From contig JAWAHN010000001.1 in NCBI GenBank assembly GCA_038889235.1, positions 884,499 to 916,498 of the forward strand: a stretch of DNA of 32,000 nucleotides, read 5' to 3'. The notes beneath the pieces were generated by a model. The model was given only the letters and a program-made list of their open reading frames with translations, did no database searches and was not told the origin of the DNA. Below, piece after piece: positions 3,092 to 16,462 of the stretch (within the stretch, counting starts at the first letter, position 1; each line of letters opens with the position of its first letter). The stretch is from Candidatus Jordarchaeales archaeon. GTDB taxonomy: Archaea; Asgardarchaeota; Jordiarchaeia; Jordiarchaeales; Freyrarchaeaceae. The translations under genes and the position numbers were made by a program.

Positions 3092-3535
3092 TTAGGCTAT
3101 ACGTCTAGCTTTGGGGAAAAAGTTTACCAACCTTCCATTTCTCGCCAACCCGCACCCCAGAAAGTCGTTCTTTGACTTGTCTTTCACTATGACGTAACCT
3201 TCAAAGTTTGGGGGGATGGGTATGTCCTCTCCTTTCAACCATTTCTCCGCTAGCGAACTGTCTATTTCGATCACATTTTTCGTGGCTTTTGCGCCTATTA
3301 TTTGGGATCCTTCAATAGATAACCTTATTGTATTCATTCCATTAAAAGGTTCTAATGTTGCAAAGTATATCCCCGCAGAAAGTACTTTCTTTTCTTCTAT
3401 TTTTTTGAGTAGGTTCTCTGAAACGGCACGCACCTTCCTCTTACCAGAAAGTATGAATCTTATCCCACTAATCTTAGGAACACCAAACTGAGTGTAAAGC
3501 TGCTGCCAAATTTGCTCCTCAAATTCTTCGTTCAA
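3092..3535 (-). CDS. NIP7-like PUA-domain ribosome biogenesis / RNA methyltransferase-associated protein
   Basis: IRLSIEGSQIIG..ATKNVIEI...KWLKGEDI...GYVIV...LGCG pattern. Immediately downstream of the RsmB/NOP2-family gene. Confidence 0.75.
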   Translation of the reverse strand: MNEEFEEQIWQQLYTQFGVPKISGIRFILSGKRKVRAVSENLLKKIEEKKVLSAGIYFATLEPFNGMNTIRLSIEGSQIIGAKATKNVIEIDSSLAEKWLKGEDIPIPPNFEGYVIVKDKSKNDFLGCGLARNGRLVNFFPKARRIA

Positions 3536-3541
3536 ACTTCA

Positions 3542-4499
3542 TCACCTTTCTTTCTTTATCCTAGCGATGAAAAAGGCGTCAGTGTGATTATCATGCGGGT
3601 ATATTCGCGCACAATTCTCTACGTTTGGATGGAAGGTTTTCCCCTCGAACTCTGTCAAACCAGTATGAAATTTAAGTCCCTTAACATCGAAATACTCAAC
3701 ACGCGCCTTCTCTTCTCGAGAGAGGAGATAGTTAACTACTGCCTCGTTTTCAAGCGGGTGTATGCTGCACGTCGAGTAGACGAGGATGCCGCCGGGCTTT
3801 AGCATTTTAAAGCCGGCAATTAGAAGTTCTCTCTGGAGAAAGTGAAGGGCTTTTATTTTCCCCTTAGTGAAGCTCGGAGGACGCTTGCTTAATAAATGTC
3901 CTGTCGATGAACACGGCGCGTCGACGAGAACTTTGTCAAATTCTTCTTTGAATACCAAGGGGAGCTTTCTGCCGTCAGACATCGTTATTGCCGTATTCAA
4001 CACACCGCATAATTGTATATTGAAGCCTAGCGAAGAGATCCTTTTAAGAGATACGTCGTTTGCAATTATAACTCCTTCATTTCTCATAAGTTGAGCCATT
4101 TGAGTGGTCTTTGACCCTGGAGCCGCACAAAGATCTAATACGTAATCTTCTGGTCTTAGTTCTAGGAAAAGCGGGGGGATCATGCTCCCCCCCTCCTGTA
4201 CATAGACGTATCCTAATGCGCGTTCGTATGCCACCAGCGGTAACGGGTTTTCTCTTGGTTCAATAACTCTAAATCCTTCCTCGAAACCAGCTTAGGGGAG
4301 AGAGACTCACGCCCTTTTCACTTAACCGTCTTACTACCTCAAACACCGGCTTTTTTAAAGTATTCACTCGGATAAAGAACTCAGGAAAGCGCTTCATACA
4401 AGCGAAAACTTCGCCAGCTTCTTCGCCGAGAAGCGAAGTATAAAGATCAACTATCTCTGGAGGGATGTAGGAAGATTTCATGTCAATTTCACCCGCCAT
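3542..4499 (-). CDS. RsmB/NOP2 (NOL1/Sun) family RNA m5C methyltransferase, interrupted by a single +1 frameshift at ~4284-4286
   Basis: ORF 4269-4499 (IRVNTLK) and ORF 3542-4234 (YVQE, DLCAAPGSKT, DAPCS, YSTCS) join as ...LSW-F-EEGFRV... if one T of TGG TTT CGA is skipped. The joined product is ~318 aa. Confidence 0.88.
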
Positions 4500-4745: not shown

Positions 4746-5462
4746 TCAGATGGATTTTATTTTTCCTTTGTATGCCAATATGCTTTGGATCAACATTGAG
4801 GCGCCTAGTATAGCTGTCGTGCTTGGAAGCACATTGAAAAAGCTCAAGGAGAGTAACGTTCCTCCCAAAGTTAGAGACAAATTAGATCCCTTGCTTCCTT
4901 TTCTGTGGAAAGAAGGCTTCTTAGAGCGCAGCAGATACATTTCTATTTCTTTTGCATTAAGACGATGTGAGAGTAATTTGACAAGTTTGTTTTTCTTCCA
5001 CTTTATCGATGCAATCTCCATGTGGCGTTTCGCTAAGTTATATAGCTGAACACGTGTAAGCTGGTATAACATTTGCTCTTTTACGCTGAAAGTTTTTGTT
5101 GCAGGCTTACCTTCAATAAGTGCAGAACACGAGAGGTAGAGAGTTAAGAACGCTATCACAAGGCTTGGGGTTGCAGCCACGAAGCTTGGGAAAGAGATGA
5201 GCGCATTGCTCCAGACAAACAGTGTTCCAGCCGCGATGGCTAGTATCACAATGCCGTAAAATAGTAGGTCTATAAAGGCGAAGGAGCACGCTTTTCTGAG
5301 GACATAGCTTAGACCTGTAAGCGAAATCGTTGCACCTATTGTGGTCGTCAACAAGGATTCATAAGAAACCATGAAGCCAGTAGTCTGCAAAAGTAATCCC
5401 GTTAATAGGAGCGCCCACATCTGTTTTAACGGCGTAAAATCACCGATAAGCTTCTCCCACAT
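4746..5462 (-). CDS. Hypothetical multi-pass membrane protein with a Rho_N/HeH-like helical motif
   Basis: About four N-terminal TM segments, then LTRVQLYNLAKRHMEIASIKWKKNKLVKLL, then a C-terminal hydrophobic hairpin. Start set at ATG 5462 (GAGGTG SD). Confidence 0.65.
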   Translation of the reverse strand: MWEKLIGDFTPLKQMWALLLTGLLLQTTGFMVSYESLLTTTIGATISLTGLSYVLRKACSFAFIDLLFYGIVILAIAAGTLFVWSNALISFPSFVAATPSLVIAFLTLYLSCSALIEGKPATKTFSVKEQMLYQLTRVQLYNLAKRHMEIASIKWKKNKLVKLLSHRLNAKEIEMYLLRSKKPSFHRKGSKGSNLSLTLGGTLLSLSFFNVLPSTTAILGASMLIQSILAYKGKIKSI

Positions 5463-5718
5463 ACCTCCCCACCTCAGAAAGGAATACACTAACAGTGAAT
5501 ATGAGTTTAGTTTTCGGGAAAGAGGTAATGAAGACTAAGGAACAAAGGGACGCTATTTTTTGGAGCGATTTAACCTCTCGAATTTCCACGTTTCAGTTTA
5601 GGTAATCATTAGTTCAGTGATGAGTGGAGAAGGTACCTTATAAAAGTTTTCTGTTCTAATTTTTAGGGAACGCTCTACGTAAGGTGTGTTGAGTACAAGT
5701 TGAGCACTCAATGGAGAT

Positions 5719-5734
5719 ACGCAAAGTTCAAATA
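5719..5734 (+). promoter_or_regulatory. Putative BRE/TATA promoter of the H/ACA RNA
   Basis: ACGCAAAG-TTCAAATA lies ~30 nt upstream of G5758, where the GC-rich structure begins. Confidence 0.5.
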
Positions 5735-5757: not shown

Positions 5758-6064
5758 GGGCTCCCCGTCGAGGGCTAGCTGACTGCCCATAGACGGGTGT
5801 GAATGAAGCTTAGAGCAAGAGGGGAGCTACACATTACGAAGGGGAAGGGCGCCGCGTAAAAACCCACTTGAACGGGCCCTCATCGAAAAAAGGGCGTTAA
5901 GCCCTAAAGATGAGGTGGGGCTTACCCAGGTGGGGGACAGCGGCCTGGAACGCCGGGTAGGTGGCTCCCAGGTCTGAGAGCACGGTTGAGAGGGGCGTAT
6001 GCTCCGCTGTGAAACCGTGTGTTAGTTACCTAGGGAACACCGGCGTTCCCCTTCCCCTTCAACA
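5758..6064 (+). ncRNA. Multi-hairpin box H/ACA pseudouridylation guide RNA (3 hairpins plus clamp helix)
   Basis: Hairpin 1 (5759-5831) and hairpin 3 (5966-6039) each have a P1 stem followed by ACA, an internal pocket and a K-turn. Their pockets pair with the 23S at 12304-12317 and 11730-11741. Hairpin 2 (5863-5939) is similar but has no assigned target. Confidence 0.85.
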
Positions 6065-6082
6065 AATAACACCTCTAACATG

Positions 6083-6141: not shown

Positions 6142-6456
6142 TTGCCTAAAAGAAAAGAGAAGGAAGAGATGCTTGAGGTAAAGGATGTAAGAATACCCAT
6201 GGAAGGGGAAGTTTTAGGCGTAGTTGAGAGGATGGTTGGCAATGATAGGCTTATTGTTAACTGTGCGGATGGCAAAACCAGGCTTGCAAGGATTAGGGGG
6301 AAATTCAAGAAGAAGGTTTGGATAAAAAATGGGGATGTCGTGCTAGTAGCTCCCTGGGATTTTCAGGACGACCGAGCAGATGTTATATGGAGATACAGTG
6401 AGGGAGAGGTTAAATGGTTGAAAAGTAAAGGATATCTTAATGGTTTAGAAGTTTAA
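6142..6456 (+). CDS. eif1a: Translation initiation factor aIF-1A
   Basis: EGEVLGVVERMVG..RLIVNCADGKTRLARIRGKFKKKVWIKNGDVVLVAPWDFQDDRADVIWRY. Confidence 0.96.
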   Translation: MPKRKEKEEMLEVKDVRIPMEGEVLGVVERMVGNDRLIVNCADGKTRLARIRGKFKKKVWIKNGDVVLVAPWDFQDDRADVIWRYSEGEVKWLKSKGYLNGLEV

Positions 6457-9341
6457 CTTTTGCCGGCGTGACGAATATACTTTAAGTATTTTTCAACGAA
6501 TTCTGGTTTTAAGTAAAAGAGTATTGTTAGAATTATTGTGGTCAGTAGCAGCATAGTGGATAATTGAGTGCATGATTGGTTAAGCTCGTAATGTCTTAGT
6601 ATGGCTTGCAAGATAGGAGGCGATAAAGCATAAATGTTCACTCCTTCGGGGGGAACAACTTCTAGGAGTAGTGAAAAGGTTACGTTTTCTCCATAATCAT
6701 CTGTGGCTTTTATCGTTATGTTTAGTACACCGGTGTAAGTAGGTGTGATGTAAGCCACGTAAACGTTCTCTTCTTCACTTTTTTGCGGCTCAAGAAGCGT
6801 TGTCCCATTTACTATAATACTGATGTCACCAGAGAAGTTTTTCGGGCTTGAAGGTGGGGAATATCCAACCCACACTTTTATGGTATGTGTTTTTCCTAGG
6901 GTCAGTTTTTCATTCGGTTGAATAATGGCTGCAGTTAGCTTATAAACGCGGAAAATGTAAGTAGTCTCGCCGGTGGGACTGAAACGTCTCTCATGGTGAA
7001 TTGTACCATCATAACTAACTATTCTCAAAATGTATTTTCCAGCATCGGTGGGCGTGAAGTTAAAAGTGAAAGTAAAGTTACCTGAGGGAGCCGCTTGAAA
7101 GTCTCTCTTTGAGCCGTTAGGCAACACTATTGTAGCGATAACTGTTTCAGGGTTATCTAAGAAGTTTCCTACTACTATAGCTAGTTCCCTTCCAACGTGA
7201 CTGAAGTCGTGCGTTACACTTAGCTCGGGAAGAAGCGATATTTCTAGATCAAGTTTGCTTCCGTCTGCAAGCAATGGAATGTTTTCGCCTTTTAGTACGA
7301 GTAGGCTGCGAGTTGTTTCGTTTAATGAGAAGTCAAGCCAATCTTCACTTGGAGAAGAATTCAAGACTACATTCTTGACGGCGTATTTTGCAGGGTAGTC
7401 GAGCTTTATGAAGCTTTGTTCAGGAAATATGGTGCTTCCATTGTGAGTGTAGTTATACAAAATTTTTGATGTATCAAACAAAGCGACGTCCTTTAGGGAT
7501 AACTTTGCAAAAGCAAATACGATGAGGCTTTTTTCAACCCAGCCCGATGTATCTTTGAGTTCAACCAGGAATGATACCTCCCCTTCAGACTTATCGTAAC
7601 TTATCTCGTCAGTAGTGAAAGATTTCGTGTAGCCGTTTCCAATCATTGAAGTTAGCTTTGTACCGTTCAAATAAAGCGTGTAACCGCTGAGATTTCCAGT
7701 GTAGTTCACGTAATGAACAATGTATGACACACTGTAGTTTAGCTGTGTGATGGCAGTTACAGAGATAGTTACACTACCATTCACTGGAGCTAACCACAAG
7801 CTGCTGTTCCAGGATAGGTCGTTGCGGACTGGTGTGCCATTAACGAGAAGGAGGAGGTCGTTGAGAGCACGCCAGCTTGTGTAGTCTGGGGCAATTTTCA
7901 TGCAATGCCAGTACCGGTTTCCATATGGGTCTCTTGCATCTAATACCCAACTAGCCCCTCCATCGGTAGTCCAAATCTCGTACCCAAATTCGGGAACTCC
8001 CTCATTAGTTCCCTCCATGTGGCTTCCCCAATCATAGTAGCCGCCGTTAGTTGAGGGAAGCCAGTCTTTCACGTGGAGCACGAGGAAGTATGCACCAGCG
8101 GATAAACTTGAGGTGAAGTTTAACGTCACCCAGGAATAGTTGGAAGATATGAGTGACGGAGGAACATCTATGCTTTCTATGATGGTGCCGGGAACCCAGC
8201 GGTTACCGTCGAGAGTAGCATTACGTAGCTCCGCGGTTAAGTTAACGTTCATTCCAAAGTTAGCTAACGGAACGGAAATGCTAATCCGGTTTACGGCTTT
8301 TCGGAGCAGGAACATTTGCGCCTCTCCCATACTCCCATTTATGCGAGCATAACCTCCGCTATTCATGCGATCTTCTAGAGTAGTCCACACTAACCCCGGT
8401 TTTATGTTTGAGAGGGAAAAAGATGCAGAGTAAACTCTATTACCGGGAACATCGACGGAAAAACTTCCGTTCAGCATGTCAAGTATTCCGCTAGCGCTTC
8501 CCAGGGTGACGCCTTCACATATATCCAAGCATAGATAGTCTAAATCCCAGCCGGGAGGCAAGTTAAACTTGAATCCATCGTAGACCATTAGACTGATATT
8601 CATCCAGCAATCATAATTAACAAGCTCCCATTTGGAAACATCGTTAAGATCGTCAAAGGACATAAAGTTATTCACGAACGCAAACCCTGCGTCGCCATAG
8701 CTGTCTGCCGTAACATTCCAGCCGAAGTGCGTTTCACTAGTTGTGTTTGCATAAACGACAATGAAGAAGATGCCGTCGCATGTATCGGAAACATTTAAAG
8801 TAACAGGAGACTCGTTCAGGAAGGTTACCCATCCAGGCGAGGATGGAACCATAGTGCTCGAGTAAGACTTCTCAATCAAAGTTACGTTCGGCACAGGTAA
8901 GCCGTCTCTGAGCGTAGCATTCCTTAATTGAACGACAAGGCCAACGGCTTCGCCTTCTCCATCTCTCCACAAATAAAGAGAGACTCCAGTAAAGTTTACT
9001 TTTAAACCACCCACACTTGATATGTTAAAGGACATGGCTACAGATTGGTTTGACGATGCAGAACAATTCACCGACAAATATTCGTTTCCATAAAGATTTT
9101 CTTCAAGCATCAATGTTACTGGCTTGCTCGTGCTAAACGACGAAAAGTTTATCCAATAAGCGGAAAGCGTTACCTCAGCACTAACAGGAGATTTTCCTAT
9201 CAATGTGGGAGCCACTAGGCGAGTATTATCGCTCTGTAAATTAGGGAACAAAGGAAACACCGAAACGGATAACAGAACTTGAATCATGAAAAGTGAAACA
9301 AGTAAGGTCAACGTTGCAGCAACAACCTTCTTGGCCTTCAA
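6453..9341 (-). CDS. Large secreted/surface glycoprotein with duplicated beta-sandwich modules and a C-terminal TM anchor
   Basis: N-terminal signal/TM (KKVVAATLTLLVSLF), many N-x-S/T sequons, two LRNATL...VP...WVT..F modules, C-terminal TM followed by a basic tail. Confidence 0.8.
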   Translation of the reverse strand: MKAKKVVAATLTLLVSLFMIQVLLSVSVFPLFPNLQSDNTRLVAPTLIGKSPVSAEVTLSAYWINFSSFSTSKPVTLMLEENLYGNEYLSVNCSASSNQSVAMSFNISSVGGLKVNFTGVSLYLWRDGEGEAVGLVVQLRNATLRDGLPVPNVTLIEKSYSSTMVPSSPGWVTFLNESPVTLNVSDTCDGIFFIVVYANTTSETHFGWNVTADSYGDAGFAFVNNFMSFDDLNDVSKWELVNYDCWMNISLMVYDGFKFNLPPGWDLDYLCLDICEGVTLGSASGILDMLNGSFSVDVPGNRVYSASFSLSNIKPGLVWTTLEDRMNSGGYARINGSMGEAQMFLLRKAVNRISISVPLANFGMNVNLTAELRNATLDGNRWVPGTIIESIDVPPSLISSNYSWVTLNFTSSLSAGAYFLVLHVKDWLPSTNGGYYDWGSHMEGTNEGVPEFGYEIWTTDGGASWVLDARDPYGNRYWHCMKIAPDYTSWRALNDLLLLVNGTPVRNDLSWNSSLWLAPVNGSVTISVTAITQLNYSVSYIVHYVNYTGNLSGYTLYLNGTKLTSMIGNGYTKSFTTDEISYDKSEGEVSFLVELKDTSGWVEKSLIVFAFAKLSLKDVALFDTSKILYNYTHNGSTIFPEQSFIKLDYPAKYAVKNVVLNSSPSEDWLDFSLNETTRSLLVLKGENIPLLADGSKLDLEISLLPELSVTHDFSHVGRELAIVVGNFLDNPETVIATIVLPNGSKRDFQAAPSGNFTFTFNFTPTDAGKYILRIVSYDGTIHHERRFSPTGETTYIFRVYKLTAAIIQPNEKLTLGKTHTIKVWVGYSPPSSPKNFSGDISIIVNGTTLLEPQKSEEENVYVAYITPTYTGVLNITIKATDDYGENVTFSLLLEVVPPEGVNIYALSPPILQAILRHYELNQSCTQLSTMLLLTTIILTILFYLKPEFVEKYLKYIRHAGKS

Positions 9342-9688: not shown

Positions 9689-9699
<11 letters not shown>
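9648..9699 (+). other. 5' strand of the 23S pre-rRNA processing stem with BHB
   Basis: Pairs with 12763-12814. Central helix CGCC(9667-70)/GGCG(12788-91), with 3-nt bulges AAC (9671-73) and AAU (12792-94). Confidence 0.88.
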
Positions 9700-12762
<3,063 letters not shown>

Positions 12763-12773
<11 letters not shown>

Positions 12774-15163: not shown

Positions 15164-16462
15164 GTGGATCCCTTGAAGTTCAAGGAGTTTAAGGACATAG
15201 AAGAGAGAGAGGCGAGGATTATTTTCGAAAGGAAAGCCAGTTTCATGGAAGCGATCAGGAAGGTGCAAAGGATAGTTGAAGAGGTGCGTAAAAAAGGTGA
15301 TGAAGCGCTGGTGAAGTACACAAAAAAGTTTGATGGAGTATTTATTCCTCCTTCAAGGATTAAAGTTACAAAAGAGGAAATTGATGAGGCATACAGCAAG
15401 ACAGGTGAGAAAGTGGTTAAAGCTATCAGGTTGGCAGCTGAGAACATAAGAGTTTTTCACGAAAAACAGATGGCTACTTTTACAGTTGAAAAAGTGCCCG
15501 GTGTAAAGCTAAGCCAGATAGTAAGACCTGTGAACAGCGCCGGAATATACGTCCCCGGGGGGCGCGCCGCTTATCCCTCTACCGCGTTAATGGCGGCAGT
15601 GCCAGCTAAAGTAGCGGGTGTTAAAAAGATAGTAGTATGCACCCCTCCAGACCGCAGCGGAGGCGTTAAGCCCGAAATTCTGGTCGCATGCAACGAGGCG
15701 GGAGTAGACGAAATTTTTAAAGTCGGCGGAGCGCAAGCGATAGCTGCGATGGCGTATGGAACGAAAACCATACCAAAAGTCGATGTACTCGTCGGGCCCG
15801 GGAACATTTACGTTACAGCAGCTAAGATTCTAGTAAGCAGAGAGGTTAGGGTAGACCTACCAGCGGGTCCCAGCGAAATTCTGGTACTAGCAGATGAAAG
15901 CTGCAACCCTCTCTTCGTCGCCGCAGACTTAGTGTCACAGGCGGAGCACGACCCCGCCGCGTCCGTAGTCTTAGTCACTACTTCAAGGAGAGTTGCCGAA
16001 GAAGTTGTGAAGCTGTCGTACGAGCTGGCTACGAAGCTGGACACGAAAGATGTCGTAGTCAGCGTCTTAGACAATGGATGGTGCATTCTAGTGGAGAACC
16101 TTGACGAAGCAGCAGAATTCGTTAATAGTTATGCTCCGGAACACTTGGAGATCCACGTAGAGAACCCCTGGTACGTTTTAGAGAAAGTCGAAAACGCTGG
16201 GGCAATCTTCATCGGAAGCTATACCCCCGTAGCTCTAGGTGACTACGTTGCAGGGTCAAACCACATTCTGCCAACTGGGGGCTACGCTAAAATCTTTTCA
16301 GGCCTTAGTGTGGAAAACTTCATCAAGAGAATTAGCGTCGTCGAATGCAACAAGGAGGGACTCAAGGCTCTCTCGGAAAGCGTTATGGTTCTAGCTGAGG
16401 TTGAAGGCATGCTTGCTCATGCACAAGCAGTTAAGGTGAGGCTTGAAAAAGATGAAGGTTAA
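15164..16462 (+). CDS. hisD: Histidinol dehydrogenase
   Basis: GIYVPGGRAAYPST, GGAQAIAAMAYG, VGPGNIYV, AGPSEIL, SQAEHD, APEHLEI, GDYVAGSNHILPT. Start uncertain (ORF track gives 15125). Confidence 0.97.
   Translation: MDPLKFKEFKDIEEREARIIFERKASFMEAIRKVQRIVEEVRKKGDEALVKYTKKFDGVFIPPSRIKVTKEEIDEAYSKTGEKVVKAIRLAAENIRVFHEKQMATFTVEKVPGVKLSQIVRPVNSAGIYVPGGRAAYPSTALMAAVPAKVAGVKKIVVCTPPDRSGGVKPEILVACNEAGVDEIFKVGGAQAIAAMAYGTKTIPKVDVLVGPGNIYVTAAKILVSREVRVDLPAGPSEILVLADESCNPLFVAADLVSQAEHDPAASVVLVTTSRRVAEEVVKLSYELATKLDTKDVVVSVLDNGWCILVENLDEAAEFVNSYAPEHLEIHVENPWYVLEKVENAGAIFIGSYTPVALGDYVAGSNHILPTGGYAKIFSGLSVENFIKRISVVECNKEGLKALSESVMVLAEVEGMLAHAQAVKVRLEKDEG

Follow-up and report, generated by a model that had tools for sequence, protein, structure and literature searches.

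What does the short hairpin upstream of aIF1A do in this archaeon, and which base of the ribosome, if any, does it mark? We analyzed it in a 32,000-nt stretch of DNA (the window) from an archaeal genome of 2.14 Mb that is 95% complete. The window also carries a stand-alone 23S rRNA gene (9689-12773) and the RNase P RNA, and the hairpin occupies the gap between a minus-strand ORF (4746-5489) and aIF1A (6142-6456). A first-pass annotation had interpreted it as an archaeal H/ACA guide with U12309 of the 23S rRNA as its target, and the pairing, its conservation and the invariance of the target uridine support this interpretation. We propose, with a probability of roughly 0.9, that this hairpin (hairpin 1) of a ~300-nt guide RNA directs pseudouridine formation at U12309 through the K-turn H/ACA mechanism, as sequence comparison and analogy with characterized guides suggest. 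We observed the anatomy of the RNA, a unique complementarity to the target, conservation with covariation, the genes for the four proteins and coverage in RNA libraries.

Hairpin 1 has the lower stem, internal-loop pocket and upper stem of an archaeal H/ACA unit, an apical K-turn that is recognizable in sequence as a tandem GA/GA, an ANA box at 14 nt from the target (within the canonical 14-16 nt), and bipartite pairing of 7+5 pairs around an unpaired UN. Its lower stem, P1 (5759-66 with 5821-28), is made of seven Watson-Crick pairs and a terminal G.U, lies where it had been placed originally, and is followed directly by ACA box 1. The K-turn is likewise as claimed (GA 5781-82, GA 5805-06, bulge 5802-04), flanked by an upper stem (5775-80/5807-13) and an apical stem (5783-5801), although the original description needs two corrections, a bulged U5811 and a G5774/A5814 mismatch in the upper stem. 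The 5' pocket strand pairs with the 23S rRNA through six Watson-Crick pairs and one G.U and the 3' strand through five Watson-Crick pairs, leaving U12309-U12310 free, and the distance from 5815 to the ACA agrees with the count made before (Table 1). A near-identical strain has a C>T change at 5830, by which the ACA reads AUA (still ANA), and a second ACA is left at 5831-33. When we shuffled the pocket and scored it against 16S and 23S rRNA, 1 of 2000 shuffles reached the real score (mean 4.0 versus 11.5 for the real pocket). No comparable second target came close in 16S or 23S rRNA, and the exact bipartite target occurs a single time in the 2.14-Mb genome. The folding energy of hairpin 1 alone is unremarkable relative to shuffles (z -1.45); since the isolated hairpin folds no better than they do, the case for it rests on comparison.

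Table 1. Features of the guide RNA locus and of its rRNA target, in window coordinates.
Feature	Position	Strand	Remarks
Putative BRE and TATA box	5721-5734	+	TTCAAATA at 5727-34
H/ACA hairpin 1	5759-5828	+	sequence and covariation
5' pocket strand	5767-5773	+	pairs with 12311-12317
3' pocket strand	5815-5819	+	pairs with 12304-12308
ACA box 1	5829-5831	+	14 nt from pocket
Clamp helix	5838-6060	+	5838-48/6050-60, enclosing hairpins 2 and 3; three-way junction
H/ACA hairpin 2	5863-5939	+	ACA 5937-39
H/ACA hairpin 3	5966-6039	+	ACA 6037-39; weak Rfam matches
23S target	12304-12317	+	U12309 = E. coli 2496 = P. abyssi 2588 = yeast 2865

The assignment of U12309 to E. coli position 2496 stood, with a window-to-E. 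coli offset that is constant at 9813 across the peptidyl-transferase region; helix 89 lacks 1 nt in the E. coli 23S strain to which we aligned, and we corrected for this by counting from D2449/A2451 and A2503. Published yeast and E. coli equivalences (2826=2457, PMC11077068; 2921=2552 and 2955=2586, PMC2584109) give the same offset, 369, to either side of the site, so that yeast 2865 equals E. coli 2496 and the proposed correspondence to yeast Psi2865, the position guided by snR46 (PMC5699541), holds. In the same way, P. abyssi 2678 equals H. marismortui 2621 and E. coli 2586 (PMC2377435; PMC2584109), and the resulting offset of 92 makes P. abyssi Psi2588 equivalent to E. coli 2496, a numbering based on published equivalences rather than on an alignment of the P. 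abyssi sequence itself. The P. abyssi sites shared with eukaryotes (2549, 2588 and 2603) have the same spacing, 39 and 15, as yeast 2826, 2865 and 2880. In P. abyssi, motif 1 of the guide Pab40 makes Psi2588 in vitro in the highest activity class, and the pseudouridine has been mapped in cellular rRNA (PMC2377435), while Psi2592 of T. kodakarensis, the equivalent site, is lost in cbf5, nop10 and gar1 mutants (PMC6138745). The first-pass annotation had described an archaeal guide for a site that is modified in eukaryotes: the guide role survives, but the novelty that this implied does not, as Pab40 motif 1 was a precedent in 2008 (PMC2377435).

A covariance model of hairpin 1 detected single-copy homologs in no fewer than 61 of the 150 Asgard genomes searched, a lower bound, as laxer filters found one more. 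The search for covarying homologs, proposed at the outset as a check, showed within the phylum that the stems covary and the pocket is near-invariant. Among 49 distinct homologs, 13 of the 14 pairs show two-sided changes, well above slid controls, in an alignment fitted to the covariance model with which a MAFFT-only set agrees. The CGAGG core of the 5' pocket is kept in 49-50 of 50 homologs per position, the GCA of the 3' pocket in 50 of 50, and the UGA of the K-turn in 46-49 of 50 per position. The spacing to the ACA in 48 homologs is 14 nt (39), 15 nt (8) or 13 nt (1), and box 1 reads ACA in 44 and AAA in 3 of them. No covariation between pocket and target emerged, in a comparison where the target hardly varies among guide-bearing genomes and the model had been trained on the invariant pocket; two genomes (G026 and G101) each have one changed target base with no matching change in the guide.

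Families f17 and f19, in which the 23S site has diverged, gave no hairpin 1 match (0 of 12). In f19 (L199, L202, L210) and f17 (L229, L235) the 2497-2503 segment of the peptidyl-transferase loop is strongly changed, with C at the near-universal A2503 position and, in f17, also at 2496. Our search for a compensated guide in f19 returned only matches that lacked hairpin stems on inspection. Loss of guide and site together is only partial: f17 and f19 fit, but f9 retains the site with few matches, a comparison in which strict filters miss matches. A hairpin pattern scan of genome contigs was too loose to use, as the 80 listed matches were almost all bacterial and chance-like. In the 23S rRNA of L218 (G021), a hairpin-forming insertion of ~32 nt, probably a BHB intron, sits precisely at the target dinucleotide 2496-2497; because it splits the target, guiding would have to come after splicing. 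In 19 of 48 homologs, all from other families (including L149, L152, L156, L160, L162, L164, L165 and L252), a box C-like GCRAUGA lies ~20 nt upstream and GAGC just after the ACA, flanks that could form a basal K-turn enclosing hairpin 1 and that are absent from the guide's own family. The position of the guide relative to the 23S target region also varies: it lies within ~1 kb downstream in two genomes of the sister family (G006:C1:1840058 and G008:C44:8617) and ~6.5 kb upstream in G000 and G004.

Hairpin 1 is the first ~75 nt of an RNA of ~300 nt (5759-~6061) that contains three H/ACA hairpins, with ACA boxes beginning at 5829, 5937 and 6037. All five genomes of the family have the octamer TTCAAATA, a conserved TATA-like element ~30 nt before hairpin 1, at a distance of 41-44 nt upstream of the pocket C, and it suggests a transcription start near 5757-59. 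Within the clamp helix, the three-way junction is completed by two basal helices (5851-55/5940-44 and 5947-56/6040-49), and the 5835-6080 region folds with an MFE z-score of -5.8. The whole three-hairpin unit is present in all four other family genomes at 76-80% identity, and the consensus fold of the five homologs has two-sided changes at 25 of 96 pairs. In its surroundings, the minus-strand ORFs 4746-5489 (247 aa) and 6453-9341 (962 aa) are without a Pfam or NCBIfam match, and a NOL1/NOP2-type RNA m5C methyltransferase (3092-4234, minus strand) appears as two adjacent ORFs, a 230-aa catalytic part with no N-terminus in frame and a 147-aa PUA-like part, a gene that may be split, frameshifted or intron-containing. 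We took a CD-box match at 5523-5639 (E 0.52) to be due to chance.

The four proteins of the archaeal H/ACA particle, Cbf5, Nop10, Gar1 and L7Ae-family proteins, are all encoded in the genome. In cbf5, a 29-nt intron splits the catalytic Asp codon behind its first base; removal of the intron restores GTLDP, and this intron position is the one known from Crenarchaeota (PMC2738675). The intron is BHB-like and lies outside the window (G000:C1:835887-835915); split or stop-interrupted cbf5 matches also occur in G001, G003, G004 and G006, and the intron may be order-wide. We found no paper reporting a cbf5 intron in Asgard archaea. Expression of the guide, which the first-pass annotation had required, is supported by RNA-library coverage in a near-identical strain and by stranded reads of a congener. 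In run X1, a 211-nt contig of the near-identical strain spans 5771-5981 at a depth of 207, about 15 times that of the contig for the upstream ORF (13), and aIF1A has no contig; these depths come from assembled contigs, which gauge abundance poorly and could contain some DNA, but a contig restricted to the guide is as expected of a discrete RNA. In run X4, a hot-spring metatranscriptome, we found 90 raw reads over hairpin 3 that show the sequence variants of the congener G003; their first mates are mostly minus-strand, consistent with a plus-strand RNA. Runs X2 and X3 contributed no reads.

The reads of run X4 also raise the question of how the ends of this RNA are held. In 70 reads, a loose tail (median length 21 nt, agreement 0.96) extends past window position 6047, and the consensus of this tail contains 14 nt of the G003 3' end followed by the first 16 nt of G003 hairpin 1. 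The joint defines an RNA of 302 nt in G003 (G003:C36 ~15838-16139; L004), equivalent to 5759-~6061 of the window, in the predicted fold of which the first and last bases are stacked at a nick. The simplest reading of the joint, at about even odds and for the congener G003 in one run, is a circular RNA. For the hot-spring family as a whole, we consider it an evenly balanced proposition that the guide with its three pockets matures into a covalently closed circle of ~300 nt. In such a circle, the first base of hairpin 1 would be linked to the 3' strand of the clamp, the clamp would serve as the basal helix of hairpin 1 and the three H/ACA units would sit on one three-way junction. Closure would involve neither an Rnl3 ligase nor an obvious BHB, and its most likely route would be RtcB sealing the nick. 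In other lineages of the phylum, hairpin 1 appears to be closed by the basal K-turn instead.

Alternatively, the RNA is linear and the joined reads arose during library preparation, when reverse transcriptase crossed the nick or ends were ligated, or stem from a tandem duplication in that strain, a serious possibility to which we give somewhat less than even odds. The joint was seen in one run and one species, in 150-nt random-primed reads of which ~5% of X4 was read, and the abutment of the two ends in one helix could favor template switching. No Rnl3-type circularizing ligase was found in the five family genomes, where weak PF09414 matches were discarded as ~600-aa proteins that are probably DNA ligases, and inspection of G003 revealed no BHB or BHL at the joint. 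On the other hand, the 70 joined reads occur at a local depth of ~87, with 34-35 distinct read starts nearby and the high agreement given above, and the joint falls 14 nt into the tail. Its sequence is absent from G003, from three other genomes and from the JGI metagenome collection. RtcB is encoded, and there are precedents both for circular archaeal sRNAs that lack a BHB and for circles beginning at start sites (PMC3326292; PMC12558985). The proposed circle resembles circular box C/D RNAs (PMC9014305) and the S. solfataricus H/ACA RNA sR109 (PMC3326292), in which a terminal stem likewise holds the ends and the joint runs 3' to 5'. It differs from known circular archaeal sRNAs in size (50-70 nt versus a 302-nt, three-hairpin guide), from sR109 in abundance (two supporting reads per library, whereas the joined form of the guide is apparently common in its one sample) and from the circles of Thermococcus in its enzymology, as these are made with the Rnl3 ligase.

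Whether circular or linear, the RNA would be transcribed from its own promoter upstream of aIF1A. L7Ae would bind the K-turn of hairpin 1 and Cbf5-Nop10-Gar1 would be placed along the stem and the ACA, as in Thermococcales; the pocket would capture the 23S rRNA to either side of U12309, which lies in helix 89 of the peptidyl-transferase center, and this uridine would be isomerized to pseudouridine by Cbf5. The modification may benefit the cell by stiffening helix 89 at high temperature. Hairpin 1 could instead bind the site as a folding chaperone or remain catalytically silent, for instance with ACA 1 masked by the RNA's 3' end. Such masking is suggested by the predicted fold of G003, in which ACA 1 and the next three bases are paired with the 3' end, and in P. 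abyssi there are predicted targets that experiment did not bear out (Table 1 of PMC2377435). The 3' tail of the window genome, however, differs from that of G003 and is predicted not to pair with ACA 1, and a single typical Haloferax hairpin is active without its ACA (PMC7075261). As the geometry of hairpin 1 is canonical throughout and the orthologous motif belongs to the most active class in vitro (+++), we consider a silent hairpin improbable.

Modification of U12310 (E. coli 2497), alone or in addition, by a pocket that slips by one base is more doubtful still. The first-pass annotation had left this register open, a 6+3 pairing for U12310 is possible on paper, and human guides with dual-register pockets are described (PMC8763049). 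We reject it because, among the 34 genomes that have the guide and a site that can be read, position 2496 is invariably U, whereas 2497 is U in 15 but A in 18 and C in 1, so that 19 of the 34, including the congener G002 with the same pocket core, have no uridine to modify there. In addition, the shifted register scores 8.5 versus 12.5, base 5814, which it requires, is not conserved, and in Haloferax the modified U is the most 5' unpaired one of a run (PMC7075261). For the same positions, we gave no weight to UU at 2496-97 as a eukaryote-like trait, since 2497 varies within the genus. That hairpin 1 is a chance resemblance without function, as its folding energy alone would allow, is refuted by the phylum-wide covariation, and also by the homologs, the shuffled pockets and the RNA coverage, which leaves this reading a negligible probability.

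Guiding of U12309 by hairpin 1 agrees with what is known of the HgcG guides of Thermococcales and Archaeoglobus (Pab40, Pf7, Pho40, Tko1 and Afu4), which likewise consist of three K-turn H/ACA motifs in the same order (PMC2377435; PMC6138745). Motif 1 of Pab40 has the same target position as hairpin 1 (P. abyssi 2588, E. coli 2496), and the order 2496, 2586 and helix 69 is shared with Pf7 and Afu4, for motif 2 by inference. The pocket words of hairpin 2, ACGG and ACCC, match 23S positions 12394-97 and 12403-06 around U12399 (E. coli 2586) and are present in 24 of 48 homologs under a strict pattern. Our target search of 16S and 23S rRNA found no canonical match with two unpaired bases for this hairpin, and the 2586 region is its likely target by analogy with motif 2 of Pf7 and Afu4 and with Haloferax (PMC2377435; PMC2584109). 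Hairpin 3 has weak Rfam matches to Pyrobac-1 (34.3 bits) and to HgcG motif 3. Its best canonical target is U11735 in helix 69 (E. coli 1921; 5+5 pairs, including two G.U), whereas Pab40 motif 3 targets 1915; the best pairing, with 11730-11741, falls at 1921 (yeast 2264), other registers are conceivable, and a shift of target within helix 69 is possible. Haloferax sR-h45, with Psi at E. coli 2586, 1915 and 1917 (PMC2584109; PMC7075261), is homologous to motifs 2 and 3 but is without motif 1, the counterpart of hairpin 1.

The Asgard RNA also differs from these guides. Hairpins 2 and 3 stand on basal helices closed by the clamp, whereas the Rfam HgcG consensus has its motifs in series, and the Asgard guide has a possible circular form, with no report of a circular Pab40-type or HgcG RNA in the literature searched, where most subscription journals are not covered. 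In an Rfam E-value scan, motif 1 of HgcG/Pab40 (RF00064) aligned on hairpin 1 with 17.8 bits (E 0.01). This is below the RF00064 gathering threshold of 77 bits, which the best score in the phylum (51.9) does not reach either, and we therefore do not file the guide under RF00064; it is a distant relative and probable orthologue of Pab40, Pf7 and Afu4. Human SNORA16 is the counterpart of yeast snR46. At this locus and in 20 homolog loci, we found no match to snR46/SNORA16 with Rfam or the SNORA16 model. The yeast guide has the same target uridine (Psi2865; PMC5699541) and the same catalytic core but belongs to the eukaryotic two-hairpin H-box/ACA type without a K-turn, unlike archaeal hairpin 1. 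No link beyond the common target was detected, and common descent of the two RNAs finds no support in Rfam similarity at the locus.

The pair of guide and site is not new, having already been shown in Pyrococcus and Thermococcales (PMC2377435; PMC6138745), and the Psi2496 site, common to Euryarchaeota, Asgard archaea and eukaryotes, is not an Asgard-eukaryote signature. Our findings extend a known guide of Thermococcales and Archaeoglobus across the Asgard phylum, and its phylum-wide presence supports the view, put forward in 2008, of Psi2496 as an ancient mark that is placed by guide RNA and shared with eukaryotes. They also yield a testable prediction for Asgard ribosomes, for which we found no pseudouridine map in the literature searched. 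Only the closure of the whole guide into a circle, as the reads of the sister species suggest, is possibly new. If true, it would be a case of a multi-hairpin H/ACA guide that is stabilized by end-joining without the known circularizing ligase, and it would bear on how the ends of guide RNAs are protected in thermophilic archaea.
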